In this document: one piece after another, positions 2,164 to 10,704 of the stretch
How the letters are laid out: each line of letters starts with the position of its first letter
Numbering within the stretch: the first letter of the stretch is position 1
Translations under genes and position numbers: made by a program
Notes under the pieces: model-generated
The model's database searches: none
Told to the model about the DNA's origin: nothing
The model's input: only the letters and a program-made list of their open reading frames with translations
Origin: Methanosuratincola petrocarbonis
GTDB taxonomy: Archaea > Thermoproteota > Methanomethylicia > Methanomethylicales > Methanomethylicaceae
Direction: 5' to 3'
Length of the DNA: 64,000 nucleotides
Assembly: GCA_030522375.1 (NCBI GenBank)
Contig: CP130488.1
Coordinates: forward strand, 1,253,005 to 1,317,004

Positions 2164-3324
2164 TTGGAATGCGGGATTTGCGGCAAGCACTATTCAGACG
2201 ATCTTCTGGAACTGCTTTCCGAGGTTTATGGTCCAAGGCTCCCGGGAGTGCTTGAGAGGCTCAGTACCCCGCCGAGCAGATATGCGGTCAGGGTCAACAC
2301 CCTCAAGGGGAACGTGGATGAGGTTGTAAGTTTCTTCAGGGCAATTGGTGTTGACTGTCGAGTCCATGAACAGATAGAGGAGGCCGTAATGATCGCTGTC
2401 GAGGGCCCGTTCAAAGTCGATCCCTCAGGGAATTCGATCACCGCAAAGAAACATGCAGCTGAGAGCGTCATGCTCGGAAGCAACCTCTACATGCCTGGGA
2501 TCATGAGGATGCAGAGGATCAAGGTAGGCGAAACTGTGCGGGTCGAAGACCCCCGAGGGCACTTGGTCGGGGCTGGCATTTCCAAGATACATTCAGGATT
2601 GCGGGGCGCGAAAGGGATCGCCGTTTCCACGTCTCAGAGCATATACAGGTTGCCGCCGATACGGGAGACCATTTTATTCTCGGAAGGAAAGCTCCAGGAA
2701 CAGAGCCTTCCCGCGATACTTACCTCAAGAGTTCTGGATCCCCAGCCTGGGGAAATAATCGTTGACATGTGCGCTGCGCCAGGAGGCAAGGCTGCCCACA
2801 TTGCGCAGCTGCAGTGTGAGAAGGGGAGGGTTCTCGCTTTCGAGCACTCTCCCAGGAGGGCGTCTAGGATGACAGAGGAGCTTGGGCGCCTCGGGATCAG
2901 ATCTGTTCTGGTCGAGAGGGCGGATTCAAGATATCTGGACAGAGACTACCCTACGCTGAGGGCGGACAGGGTGCTAGTCGACCCCCCGTGCACAGCCCTC
3001 GGCGTCAGGCCGAAACTCTACGAGGAGGCTACTGCGGCGGAGGTCTTCTCGTCAGCAGCATTCCAAAAGCAGTTCCTGAGGGCTGCCGCAAGGATCGTGA
3101 AGCCCCTAGGTGTAATCGTGTACTCGACGTGCACGCTGTCGATTCAGGAAAATGAGGGCGTGGTCCGGTTCGCTGTCGAGGAGCTCGGGCTTGAGCTCGA
3201 GGAGCCCCCAATCAGGGTGAACGTGGCCGGGCAGGGGATCGGGTTCAAGGAGTGCATCAGGTTTGACCCAGACGTTAGCGAAACGCCCGGATACTTCATC
3301 GCGAGGTTCACAAGGAACCGTTGA
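2164..3324 (+). CDS. RsmB/NOP2-family RNA m5C methyltransferase with PUA domain
   Basis: VRVNTLK, DMCAAPGGK, LVDPPCTALG, YSTCT motifs. Confidence 0.92.
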   Translation: MECGICGKHYSDDLLELLSEVYGPRLPGVLERLSTPPSRYAVRVNTLKGNVDEVVSFFRAIGVDCRVHEQIEEAVMIAVEGPFKVDPSGNSITAKKHAAESVMLGSNLYMPGIMRMQRIKVGETVRVEDPRGHLVGAGISKIHSGLRGAKGIAVSTSQSIYRLPPIRETILFSEGKLQEQSLPAILTSRVLDPQPGEIIVDMCAAPGGKAAHIAQLQCEKGRVLAFEHSPRRASRMTEELGRLGIRSVLVERADSRYLDRDYPTLRADRVLVDPPCTALGVRPKLYEEATAAEVFSSAAFQKQFLRAAARIVKPLGVIVYSTCTLSIQENEGVVRFAVEELGLELEEPPIRVNVAGQGIGFKECIRFDPDVSETPGYFIARFTRNR

Positions 3325-3838
3325 TCTTCCTCTTGCTGTAGACCTTCCTCTTAAGCGAATGTCCGCACACCTGGCAAGTGGTTAGCTTCTTGGACTGGTC
3401 ATAAGTGGCCCCGCATGCAGGGCAGTAAAGGAACCACCAGAACTCCTCGGCTATCCCCTTTGTTACCATCGGCTTGAAGTCTATCGAAAGGAGGGTGCAT
3501 AGGTTCTGCAGACTATAGTCGTCGCTCACGACAAGGACACTCTCCCCCTCGCTATCTAGTTCGAGTGCCAGTGCAACTACCTCGAGATCAGTATCAGATA
3601 GCACAGTGAGGTCCCCGGTCGAGGAGGCGCGGGTCTTCACTACTGTCACATACTCGGGTCGCGGTGCCCTCACTTTAAGGCGCCCGCTGGCGATCGAGAC
3701 CTCTGTTACAGACCGCGTCCTTCCAGCATAAAGCTCGGCCTCGACGCCTGGAGTTATGTAGTGGGTCCCTTCGACTAGCCTCGGGTTGAAGCCGTAGATT
3801 ATTGCTGACGTGTCGAGCACATAAGTCTTGGAGGCCAC
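3308..3838 (-). CDS. nob1: Nob1 endoribonuclease (PIN domain plus Zn ribbon)
   Basis: YVLDTSA, LSDTDLEVVALA, SDDYSLQN, CPAC/CQVC. Confidence 0.92.
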   Translation of the reverse strand: MASKTYVLDTSAIIYGFNPRLVEGTHYITPGVEAELYAGRTRSVTEVSIASGRLKVRAPRPEYVTVVKTRASSTGDLTVLSDTDLEVVALALELDSEGESVLVVSDDYSLQNLCTLLSIDFKPMVTKGIAEEFWWFLYCPACGATYDQSKKLTTCQVCGHSLKRKVYSKRKINGSL

Positions 3839-6802: not shown

Positions 6803-7162
6803 GTGACATTATTGAAAAAGACAAAAGTCGATAAAAACGCTTTCCATGGATTAGATTTGCCAGAGCTGGAACAAATCAGGAAGCGGATGGCAAGCGATCC
6901 TTCGCTGGAGGAACGTCTTAAAAAGGATTTTCATGGCACCCTTAAGAAAGAGGGGATCAAGGTAGACAGCGCCTTTAGGGACAAGGTGATGGAGAAGCTG
7001 AATTCGAAAGTGAGGGCAGATCTGAGGGAGATTGTCGCGAAAAGGCCAGAGGCTAAGAATTGGTACCTGAAACGCGTTTTGGAAGGGAAGCCATTGAAGA
7101 TACATGTGCACATAGACAAGGAGACGGGCAGATGCGAGAAGTCGCTCGGAGGCGGGGGCTAA
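6803..7162 (+). CDS. Hypothetical basic helical protein, translationally coupled to the next gene
   Basis: Open frame with protein-like composition; stop overlaps the next ATG (TAATG); start uncertain (6773, 6803 or 6812). Confidence 0.7.
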   Translation: MTLLKKTKVDKNAFHGLDLPELEQIRKRMASDPSLEERLKKDFHGTLKKEGIKVDSAFRDKVMEKLNSKVRADLREIVAKRPEAKNWYLKRVLEGKPLKIHVHIDKETGRCEKSLGGGG

Positions 7163-8736
7163 TGCAAACGGGAGGATACGACGTTGTCTTGGAGTTAAGG
7201 GAAGAGCTACTGAACAAGTTCATGAAGGTTGGCCATTGCATTGGTGCATTCCCAGTTCTCAAGGGGACTTACACGCTCCCAATCCCCAATGTGCCTGACA
7301 GCCTGAAGGAGTTCACAGTGATAGGGTACGAGGTCTCCCTTCCGAAGCCCCCGACAATCGAAGCCACGGCAGATCTGCACTTGCGGATGAATGTGAGGGG
7401 GCAGGCGAAGTTCACGGTGCTTGGGGGTATAGAGTTTGAGATCGAAGTCGAGTTCACCGTGGGGGTCGCCCCGTCTTTCGACCAGGCAACCCGCAGGCTC
7501 AAGATCGACCTGTTGAGCGCAAGCATTGACGACGTCGAGCTGAACGACACTTACCACCTCCCAACTAATGTGATAGCCAAGCTGAATGAGATACTGACGA
7601 TCGCCATGCACGAGTACTTGACAGAAGATCTCACTACCCTGGAGCTGAGTCCGGTCCTATTCGCCACGGAGCTCCCGGATATGCCAGCAGGGGAAGAGAA
7701 CAAGCTAACCATCGGTCTGGGGAATTTCCGCGTCTTGAACCCTTCCACACTGTGTGTCGCAGTCAACTTGCTCGGCTACAACGGCGGTGACATCAACACG
7801 GTCTTGGACTTCACAGATGGGAGCCATATCGGCGTAGGCGTCAACGAAGGGGCAATGCACAGAGTTTATGATTTCTGGTGGGACAGGACGACGCACCCAA
7901 AGTCGGTCACTAAAACGGGTAGGCACGACTTCGACATGCCCTCGATAGTTGACTGGCTGGACGAGCTAGCCGACTGGGTGGTGGCTGCCTGCACGCTTGG
8001 CATTGTCAGCACTGAGATAGATATAAAGCGTGTCTGGGCGGAGTTCGGGGCCACAATAAGGTTCAGCAAGTTTGACTTCGACCTGAAGCCTGGGAATGTT
8101 GTGGAGATCGCAGGGAGCGTCTCGATCGACGCTTGGATGAGGGCGCTAATCACGATACAGACCACAACCTCGCTTTTCTGGGGGCTCTGGGACGTCGACA
8201 CAGAGACCTACACCGGGGAGATATTCAGCCTCTCCGTCAACAACATGGTCATCGACATCGACTCGGCTTCTGCAAAGGTTTACTTGGACGACAAGAATCA
8301 GCTCGTCGTTGACATACTTGACCTAGACATCTCTATACCGCTCGACTGGGAGATACCCGAGTTCCTGCTGAACTATTTTGTCAACTGGCTTATAGACAGG
8401 ATAGTAGAGAACTTGCCGCCGATCGTGCTCTTCCCTGCAGTCATTGAAGAGAGCCTGCCGGGTACCACAGTGAAAGTCAAGGCGACATTCACCAAGCTCT
8501 TAATCGATGAGCCAGAAGCCCTTGTTGCCGCAAACATAGAGACTTCAGGCATTGGAGCGTATGCACCATATGTGGCAAACAAGTCCCCCGAGCACATGGA
8601 GGTCCACAAGAAGGATTGCGAGTGGGCCCATAGGATTGCCATCAGGAACAGGGTCTATTTCTGTGACCTTGAGGAAGCCCTTGCGTCAGGCTACGATGGG
8701 TGCAGGTACTGTATGCCCGAGCACCACCACAGGTAG
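7162..8736 (+). CDS. Hypothetical 524-aa protein: probable two-lobed TULIP/P47-like beta-rich body with C-terminal Ada-type metal-binding domain
   Basis: ATG 7162 after GGAGG; N-terminus MQTGGYDVVLELREELLNK; C-terminus VHKKDC...NRVYFCDLEEALASGYDGCRYC matches the Ada Zn-domain pattern. Confidence 0.75.
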   Translation: MQTGGYDVVLELREELLNKFMKVGHCIGAFPVLKGTYTLPIPNVPDSLKEFTVIGYEVSLPKPPTIEATADLHLRMNVRGQAKFTVLGGIEFEIEVEFTVGVAPSFDQATRRLKIDLLSASIDDVELNDTYHLPTNVIAKLNEILTIAMHEYLTEDLTTLELSPVLFATELPDMPAGEENKLTIGLGNFRVLNPSTLCVAVNLLGYNGGDINTVLDFTDGSHIGVGVNEGAMHRVYDFWWDRTTHPKSVTKTGRHDFDMPSIVDWLDELADWVVAACTLGIVSTEIDIKRVWAEFGATIRFSKFDFDLKPGNVVEIAGSVSIDAWMRALITIQTTTSLFWGLWDVDTETYTGEIFSLSVNNMVIDIDSASAKVYLDDKNQLVVDILDLDISIPLDWEIPEFLLNYFVNWLIDRIVENLPPIVLFPAVIEESLPGTTVKVKATFTKLLIDEPEALVAANIETSGIGAYAPYVANKSPEHMEVHKKDCEWAHRIAIRNRVYFCDLEEALASGYDGCRYCMPEHHHR

Positions 8737-8977: not shown

Positions 8978-9325
8978 CTAAATGATTGCTAAAAACGCAA
9001 AGCCGAGCAGAGCCAACACTATGCCGATGATTATGAAGACAACGACTGTCACTATTGCGATCAGCAATGCCTTGAGCCACCCGCAGTCAAAGAAGTGCTT
9101 GATCAGTGCGAGCCAGATTATCAGCATGATTATGGTGCCAATCAGCCCCAATTCGAAGTAGCCGAATATCGCGCCGACAATAGTTCCGATCACGACGATC
9201 CAAATCGCATCAGTGAACTTAGCCTTGTCTTTGCCGACAAGCCACCTACCCACAAGCCAGAGTACTGGGGACAGAAAAATTACGCTGACAACTAGGTTTA
9301 TTAATACAGAAACCAAGTCCGCCAT
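8978..9325 (-). CDS. Small hypothetical membrane protein (about 4 TM)
   Basis: 115 aa, four hydrophobic segments, ATG start. Confidence 0.8.
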   Translation of the reverse strand: MADLVSVLINLVVSVIFLSPVLWLVGRWLVGKDKAKFTDAIWIVVIGTIVGAIFGYFELGLIGTIIMLIIWLALIKHFFDCGWLKALLIAIVTVVVFIIIGIVLALLGFAFLAII

Positions 9326-9433: not shown

Positions 9434-9778
9434 TCATAACTTTGTGTCTGACGATCCTTCATAAGTGAAGCATGTGCTAGGGAACCGGTTGAGAATGCTT
9501 CTTGCGACCATGCCTGCCTCTGTCCAGGCGGCGGATACAACTGCGCATGGAACGACGCACTCAGGGCCGAGCTTCGAAGAGGCTATCACATAAATCGGGT
9601 TCTTCAGTATTGGTTGGGCCAAGTCATTTATGCTGATTTCGCCAAGGGAGTCTCCGTACGCCTTGACCCTTGGGCAGGTCGTGTTGAGCCTTATTTTAAT
9701 CGCAGAACCCTCCTTCTCCGCGACGATCTGGGTCCTCTGATCGCACCGCGGGGAGTTTACTGAAAATGAGGTTGTCAA
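9434..9778 (-). CDS. Hypothetical Cys-containing protein (DUF6951-like)
   Basis: Pattern C-x(4)-T-x-I-x-A...TCP...IY...ECVVPC...EAGM recalls DUF6951. Confidence 0.55.
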   Translation of the reverse strand: MTTSFSVNSPRCDQRTQIVAEKEGSAIKIRLNTTCPRVKAYGDSLGEISINDLAQPILKNPIYVIASSKLGPECVVPCAVVSAAWTEAGMVARSILNRFPSTCFTYEGSSDTKL

Positions 9779-9882: not shown

Positions 9883-10704
9883 TTAGAATGGTGCAAATAT
9901 GCCGATGAAAACCAGCCAGGCCAGGATTGTTTTCGCCACCAGGCTCAGTAAGATGTAGACCCTCTCGCCGCGGGGGTAGTCTTTCCACTTGCCGATCCCC
10001 TTGTACTGGAGGAGCATGTTGATAGAGAATGTGTTGAACATTACGAAGTAAAGGACGAGAACCAGATAGACGAATGTCGGTGGGCTTGTGTCGGTTGAAT
10101 TCAGAGCGGCAACAAAGTAAGCTGCTGTGACCACCCACGGGGTGAAGCAGGAGATGCAGCCCAACAGATAGGGAGACCAATCGATCTTCTTCGTATACTG
10201 GTTGATCTTCTCCATCAGGTAACCAAACATTATCATCATGGCATTCAGTACGAAGATCATGATGAGGGACCGCAAATCCCAGACCCCGATGAATGTCGCC
10301 AATATCTCGAGCATGATCGAGCTGGAGAACGCATACTCATACCAACGATAGGGGTTCATCCCTCTTTTTAGGTACTCATTGTATTGCCTGGTCCTTGCAA
10401 ATGCGATAATCATGTGGGCGGCAGCCGAGATCAGCAAGAACGACGCCAGTAACGCCCCCAGATATGTGATTGTGAAAGCCTGGGGATTTGGCACGACTTG
10501 GAATAGGAGGGGTAGACGGGATTACTTCGAACTTGAGGTAAAAGGTGTAAATGTCCCGCTCCCACGTTAAGAGGGTGTGCCTAAAGCCAGCATGAGTATC
10601 CCCTGCACCAAGTGGAGGGTCCCGGTACCAATGTTCAATTTCCTGAGGCTTTCCATGGTTATTGGGGATTTCGAGATCAGCTTCCTTTTCAAATCATTGT
10701 CCAT
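9883..10704 (-). pseudogene. heR: Heliorhodopsin, interrupted by two compensating frameshifts (about 10575 and about 10505)
   Basis: TM1 LNIGTGTLHLVQG; SAAAH; NPYRWYEYAFSSSIM; LQYKGIGKWKDY..GERVYILLSLVAK (retinal Lys). TAA stops at 10569-10567 and 10524-10522; an alternative frame between them reads LLTWERDIYTFYLKFEV. Confidence 0.9.

Follow-up and report, generated by a model that had tools for sequence, protein, structure and literature searches.

Results and Discussion

Heliorhodopsin locus and host genome

The window, a stretch of 64,000 nucleotides from the genome of Methanosuratincola petrocarbonis (CP130488.1), carries a heliorhodopsin (HeR) gene that is divided over two open reading frames (Table 1). 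The first ORF (MDNDLKRKLISKSPITMESLRKLNIGTGTLHLVQGILMLALGTPS) comprises a K/R-rich, predicted cytoplasmic N-terminus and TM1 with a conserved His (LHLVQ), and its C-terminal end before the stop reads TLHLVQGILMLALGTPS. The second ORF lies in the same frame and contains the Glu that serves as counterion in TM3 (RWYEY), the Lys that forms the Schiff base in TM7 (SLVAK) and, in TM2, the other conserved His (AAAHMII). By its position against the orthologue translations the segment between the two belongs to the TM1–TM2 loop region, and 22 of its 23 residues agree with the unbroken HeR of a sister genome, that of Candidatus Methanosuratincola verstraetei LCB70 (G002, CP186953). An uninterrupted frame of about 270 codons is absent from the locus, which is crossed by two in-frame TAA codons and by indels of +2 and −2 nt. 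The coordinates, translations and reading frames given in an earlier note on this DNA were correct, as was its view of the middle segment as HeR loop sequence. The K/R-rich stretch MDNDLKRKLISK in front of TM1 is an indirect hint of an inverted topology, with the N-terminus predicted to lie inside.

The assignment to the HeR family, which the earlier note had also made, is supported by the Pfam profile PF18761 (Heliorhodopsin, gathering cut-off 26.7 bits) as well as by sequence matches to solved HeR structures. The profile matches the C-terminal ORF with E = 2e-80 (270.1 bits) over profile positions 43–241 of 242 and the N-terminal piece with E = 0.0046 over positions 1–24. Joining the three frames into one read-through raises this to E = 2.2e-88 (296.1 bits) over positions 1–241 of 242.

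The host genome consists of one contig of 1,538,194 bp with 54.42% G+C and contains mcrA, which confirms the anaerobic methanogen that had been proposed as host. M. petrocarbonis LWZ-6 has been described as an isolate from Shengli oil-field sludge with a genome of 1.54 Mbp and 54.42 mol% G+C (PMC12244365), and the genome studied here is presumably that of LWZ-6 or of a near-identical strain.

Table 1: Features of the HeR locus and of the carotenoid gene clusters. Positions are those of the window unless another sequence is named.
Feature	Position	Strand	Remarks
HeR pseudogene (very probable), whole	9883..10704	-	orthologous to the intact 274-aa HeR genes of 3 congeneric genomes
N-terminal fragment ORF, 45 aa	10567..10704	-	ATG 10704 to TAA 10569-10567
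2-nt insertion site	10573..10575	-	CCC against a single C in orthologues; DNA alignment
Out-of-frame middle segment	10505..10572	-	encodes LLTWERDIYTFYLKFEVIPSTPP in the shifted frame
Second in-frame TAA, between the two ORFs	10522..10524	-	
Single A (net -2)	10504	-	GTC or GTT (Val) in orthologues and intermediate allele
Junction of the in-frame 3-nt deletion	10479..10480	-	Val codon GTC of PNPQ-V-AFTITY gone
C-terminal fragment ORF, 203 aa	9883..10494	-	TM2-TM7; GTG 10494 start
558-aa protein, Cys/His-rich tail (CEWAHR...CRYCMPEHHH)	7060-8736	+	neighbour of the HeR pseudogene
115-aa small membrane protein	8978-9325	-	conserved beside HeR in same-species assemblies
114-aa DUF6951 protein	9434-9778	-	conserved beside HeR in same-species assemblies
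crtID-crtB-lyeJ-cruF cluster, genome of the window (G000)	G000:C1 about 773,453-777,479 (L099 7454-11480)		476 kb from the window
Orthologous carotenoid cluster, LCB70 (G002)	L100 7446-11443	-	four adjacent genes

Orthologues and lesions

Besides the genome of the window, three of 40 relatives contain HeR, all of the same genus (LCB70, G004 and G006) and each with an open gene of 274 aa. The neighbourhood is the same in these congeners, with aIF5A and SRP54 upstream and the DUF6951 gene downstream. The comparison with sister genomes that the earlier note had called for finds the gene intact in the congeners and broken in the window.

In the DNA alignment the first lesion is a 2-nt insertion that changes GGCACA-CTC to GGCACA-CC-CTC, the second a net loss of two nucleotides (CCT-GTC-TTC to CCT-A-TTC), and the third the loss of one Val codon (CAG-GTC-GCT to CAG-GCT). 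The insertion shifts the frame and thereby leads to the first TAA, and the −2 returns the 3' part to register, and the two ORFs therefore share one frame. The −2 rescues nothing, as the stops lie between the two indels. The earlier note had read the interruption as a −1 near 10575 compensated by a +1 near 10505; the effect on the frame was right but the single-base nature was not, as compared with the orthologues the changes are an insertion of two and a net deletion of two nucleotides, and the in-frame 3-nt deletion had been missed.

Substitutions and selection

For comparison we used 80 homologues from 83 loci, extracted by tblastn. Eight residues of the window copy are absent from all 80 (R6K, A27T, V133E, W145R, V148I, G186C, L244P and H/Y245R), and five of these stand at columns that are otherwise 100% invariant (R6K, A27T, W145R, G186C and L244P), while the three congeners have only 2, 0 and 1 residues unseen in the homologues. 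The six changes from V133E to H245R fall into the C-terminal ORF. G186C replaces the Gly of GCISGF, part of the GCIxGFxPW motif, so that family-invariant residues are no longer conserved in this copy. The Gly of the CIxG motif is reported to be conserved in 98.5% of HeRs and to belong to a lateral fenestration for which binding of carotenoids has been proposed (bioRxiv 10.1101/2025.11.27.691015); judged from the motif, G186 would correspond to position 169 of 48C12.

Counts of private synonymous and non-synonymous changes are 13/13 on the branch of the window compared with 19/11, 23/9 and 47/8 in the congeners, which by rough site counts gives the window branch a ratio of about 0.3, raised but not neutral. 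Such a value is expected after a recent inactivation but would also fit some residual constraint. Among the matches listed from 5.8 billion cluster representatives, no full-length protein exceeded 93% identity; the 93%-identical match carries none of the private changes, and the species itself appears only in the form of truncated ORFs.

Both ORFs are open, the downstream one with a GTG start, and the C-terminal ORF retains the Lys of the Schiff base, the Glu counterion and one His as well as a non-synonymous rate that is not fully neutral, so it could be argued that the gene has been split rather than lost, with the 45-aa TM1 peptide and the 203-aa TM2–7 ORF reassembling or the TM2–7 piece having taken on a new role. 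Fragments of bacteriorhodopsin are indeed able to reassemble in vitro. However, residues 44–70 between TM1 and TM2 would be absent from such a protein, and the radical changes V133E, W145R, G186C and L244P all fall into the retained part, the latter three at invariant positions. A split HeR was found neither among the 83 homologous loci nor among the best 120 of 973 database matches. We therefore regard a functional split as quite improbable and favour a HeR pseudogene that was inactivated recently and by several hits.

Alleles in independent assemblies

The truncated products were looked up by their exact sequence in Logan and NCBI assemblies. The exact 45-aa ORF was found on 9 Logan contigs, and the C-terminal ORF in its three start-codon versions on 10–12 contigs each (NCBI and Logan, with 11 NCBI contigs). 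The broken allele of the window is present in four of the five Logan run assemblies that were aligned (SRR11866724, SRR11866725, SRR28876184 and SRR28822789) and in the NCBI MAGs GCA_039630895.1 and GCA_039630705.1. Five of these six loci match the window letter for letter throughout the gene; the one from SRR11866724 differs by two substitutions. A second, intermediate allele, which has the +2 and the −3 and keeps GTC at 10504, occurs in SRR28875812 (L086) and in the MAG GCA_039630835.1 (L093). Thus all seven independent same-species assemblies aligned, and in addition L093, share the 2-nt insertion. As the allele recurs and an intermediate exists, the breaks are real mutations that arose stepwise and not assembly errors. 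The hits were sequential, since the intermediate allele has the +2 and −3 without the −2, and it represents the older state because it agrees with the orthologues at the second site. Since the source of these independent assemblies was probably a set of related Shengli enrichments, they prove the sequence to be real but not the fixation of the allele across the range of the species.

The coexistence of two alleles on otherwise identical backgrounds might also point to regulated expression, in which a full-length HeR is made through phase variation by reversible slippage, another explanation offered by the earlier note, or through programmed ribosomal frameshifting. Yet the sites (expansion of C1 to C3, replacement of GTC by A, deletion of one GTC) are not slippable repeat tracts, none of the indels lying in a repeat long enough for reversible slippage, and no ON state is observed as neither allele is open at the first site. 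Programmed frameshifting was rejected as well: it would depend on a −1 (or +2) shift at ACA CCC UCU UAA, which is not a slippery site of the X XXY YYZ type, and in the allele of the window also a second shift, and the orthologues require no frameshift at all. Regulated expression is thus even harder to maintain than the split protein and very improbable. Last and least probable, to a degree that makes it practically negligible, is a gene that is intact in the cell and whose frame changes are the paired sequencing errors suspected in the earlier note: two changes of frame that cancel each other within 70 nt do invite suspicion, but the same allele recurs in NCBI MAGs and in four runs whose Logan contigs were assembled from raw data separately from any work of the submitters, five of the six loci being identical letter for letter, the second allele differs only in lacking the −2, the indels of +2 and −2 lie outside long homopolymers, the loss of a codon and eight unique amino acid changes would not arise from indel errors, and broken ORFs are not in excess compared with the closed sister genome (see below).

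With recurrent indels, an intermediate allele and radical substitutions at invariant positions, the recent pseudogenisation that the earlier note had considered is well supported, and we conclude that the locus is very probably a recently inactivated, multi-hit HeR pseudogene in a methyl-reducing methanogen of the M. petrocarbonis type. The ancestor of the genus subclade would have had an intact 274-aa HeR of the archaeal cluster shared by Methanobacteria and Bathyarchaeia. Insertion of two C after codon 43 (C to CCC) then shifted the frame into an immediate TAA and cut TM1 from TM2–7, with one Val codon also being deleted. Later, and in part of the population, the change of GTC to A 70 nt downstream restored the 3' frame without any rescue. 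Released from selection, the copy would then have gained its radical substitutions at positions that are invariant in its relatives.

Broken genes in the whole genome

In order to compare broken genes over the whole genome, crude ORFs of at least 150 aa were compared between the genome of the window and the whole genome of LCB70 in both directions. This gave 49 and 45 interior disruptions, respectively, most of which are spurious ORFs by eye. All that can be read from these noisy counts is that broken frames are not in excess in the genome of the window. HeR and the carotenoid gene crtB, described below, are among roughly half a dozen plausible cases of real breakage.

The crude comparison also turned up four further genes, named here by their intact counterparts in LCB70, whose family labels are guesses from sequence. 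In the genome of the window all four appear to be interrupted: a putative GPR1/FUN34/YaaH-like membrane protein (189446-190084), a 799-aa secreted, putative ABC-transporter substrate-binding protein (258961-261360) with an apparent stop near codon 163, a 577-aa putative polytopic membrane protein (649275-651008) with an apparent frameshift near codon 296, and a 194-aa hypothetical protein (202016-202600).

Phylogeny and distribution of HeR

A phylogenetic tree of 81 sequences groups the four Methanosuratincola HeRs together (support 100/99), and this clade is placed among sequences from Methanobacteriaceae and some Bathyarchaeia. The nearest HeRs outside of the genus are those of Methanobacteriaceae with about 80% amino acid identity, followed by Bathyarchaeia with 65–77%. 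This identity and the mixed placement across phyla suggest that HeR may have been transferred laterally among anaerobic archaea. The annotation 'heliorhodopsin HeR' already exists in NCBI and UniRef for Methanosuratincola sp., Ca. Methanomethylicus and several Methanobacterium species, and our literature search found no paper linking HeR with Methanosuratincola.

Two other sequences in the collection deserve mention. The HeR match of Methanobacterium sp. isolate J_0 (L067, JAHRFX010000035.1, about 2976-3797) has an internal stop in the tblastn alignment and may be a second, independent methanogen HeR pseudogene or an assembly error in a contig of 5.6 kb. The 2.4-kb contig CAZYWQ010000526.1 (L047), binned as a Candidatus Sumerlaeota bacterium, carries a HeR that falls inside the archaeal clade beside Thermoproteota sequences, probably as the result of a binning error and not as a bacterial HeR of archaeal type.

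Carotenoid genes

As the earlier note had stated, no retinal synthesis genes lie near the HeR locus. The search of the genome for blh and crt genes that it suggested revealed crtID and crtB in a carotenoid cluster elsewhere, and left Blh and lycopene cyclase unmatched. For Blh/Brp (PF15461, TIGR03753) there was no match in the genome of the window, LCB70, G004, G006 or G007, a weak negative as the controls were also below the cut-off. The lycopene cyclase domain TIGR03462 gave no match, with controls that worked.

The cluster of LCB70 encodes a CrtID-type desaturase (NF058655, 687 bits, cut-off 640), CrtB (matching PF00494, SQS_PSY), a UbiA/LyeJ-like prenyltransferase (PRK12875, 335 bits, cut-off 205) and a CruF-like protein (PF04240), for which the TIGR03460 score of 128.8 is below the cut-off of 154.7. 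In the genome of the window the SQS_PSY (phytoene/squalene synthase) profile matches over positions 2–190 of 263 only. Here crtB has lost 2 nt at about codon 203, which results in a chimeric ORF of 577 aa that runs into the frame of the lyeJ/prenyltransferase gene. The exact fused ORF was found on 23 contigs of independent assemblies, which means that a second pigment-related gene is genuinely broken in the species. Among the 40 relatives crtB is confined to genomes of the genus (that of the window, LCB70, G004, G006 and G007) and HeR to the same genomes except G007, which is 77% complete and in which none was found.

This distribution raises the question whether HeR and crtID-crtB-lyeJ-cruF form one light-response module that was acquired by the genus subclade and is at present disappearing as a whole from the oil-field species, in which HeR and crtB are both frameshifted. 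If so, the species would be a natural double knock-out of HeR and crtB, the archaeal HeR would depend on an endogenous, oxygen-independent carotenoid, either as fenestration antenna or as chromophore precursor, and the pair of LWZ-6 (broken) and LCB70 (intact) would make the role of HeR in strict anaerobes testable. We consider a module of this kind unlikely, although less so than the rival readings of the HeR locus itself. Physical linkage of HeR and crt genes was rejected, as a tblastn search with the four Crt proteins against 78 HeR loci (800 kb) gave only two weak CrtI-like matches. An obligate co-occurrence of HeR and crtB was rejected too, since of 16 genomes with a HeR of this clade 9 lack crtB, and HeR is thus not generally dependent on the carotenoid cluster.

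Habitat and light

The relatives with intact HeR are from hot springs and the species of the window is from an oil field, so the loss may reflect weakened selection for light sensing where the surroundings are opaque, underground or oily, with a lightless niche as its possible cause. The crtB frameshift may be part of the same loss of a light-related module. A general loss of light-related genes is not supported: a gene of the photolyase/cryptochrome family (PF00875; G000:C1:847,759-849,282, L192), present in most congeners, is still open in the genome of the window, and therefore not all light-related genes are decaying. The cause in a dark niche is weakened by Methanobacterium petrolearium, which was isolated from a petroleum facility and has an intact HeR of 273 aa. 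Other real frameshifts are found in unrelated genes of the genome of the window, so some of the breakage is background. Together with the open photolyase gene, the lack of linkage and the HeR genomes without crtB, these observations keep the habitat and the carotenoid link at the level of the plausible.

Significance

Taken alone, the finding is routine gene decay, and HeR in methanogens is already on record. What we can document is the stepwise loss of a photoreceptor gene in a cultured Thermoproteota methanogen, from the ancestral intact gene through an intermediate to the present allele. Close relatives keep HeR. In addition, crtB has been broken independently in this genome, and the carotenoid cluster to which it belongs follows HeR in its distribution over the genus; this parallel frameshift is the one feature that goes beyond the routine. 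M. verstraetei LCB70 has been cultivated and LWZ-6 is an isolate, so that a comparison of the two is ready to hand and could show whether an anaerobic methanogen has any use for HeR and carotenoids. Annotators should join the two ORFs into a single entry marked as a pseudogene instead of listing a 'hypothetical protein' and a short HeR.

Comparison with known systems

The closest intact counterparts, the HeRs of LCB70, G004 and G006, show 90–92% amino acid identity to the read-through of the window and have the same key residues. They differ in being open over 274 aa, whereas the window copy has the +2, −2 and −3 indels, two in-frame stops and eight unique substitutions.

With regard to the carotenoid genes, the LCB70 cluster, with its matches to four families, resembles the haloarchaeal bacterioruberin genes (crtB, crtI/crtD, lyeJ and cruF). 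In contrast to these, the Methanosuratincola cluster encodes a putative pathway of a strict anaerobe and its CruF stays below the cut-off; in the genome of the window, moreover, a frameshift fuses crtB to the lyeJ frame.

The best solved relative is TaHeR from the Thermoplasmatales archaeon SG8-52-1 (PDB 6IS6, 7U55 and 7CLJ), to which residues 18–274 align with E = 8.7e-51, and 48C12 (6SU3) is also among the best by sequence. RW(F/Y)EY, SLVAK, both His (TLHLVQ in the N-terminal fragment and AAAHMII) and the GCIxGFxPW motif align with TaHeR. In the window copy, by contrast, Cys replaces the Gly of GCIAGF (G186C), YPRGE stands in place of the loop motif YLHGE, and TM1 is cut away from the remainder.

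Within the family, the Methanosuratincola HeRs belong to the archaeal cluster C10 of Bathyarchaeia and Methanobacteria (Bulzu et al. 2021, bioRxiv 10.1101/2021.02.01.429150; PMC8612252), but here the host is a methanogen of the Thermoproteota (Methanosuratincolia) and the copy in the window is very probably dead.
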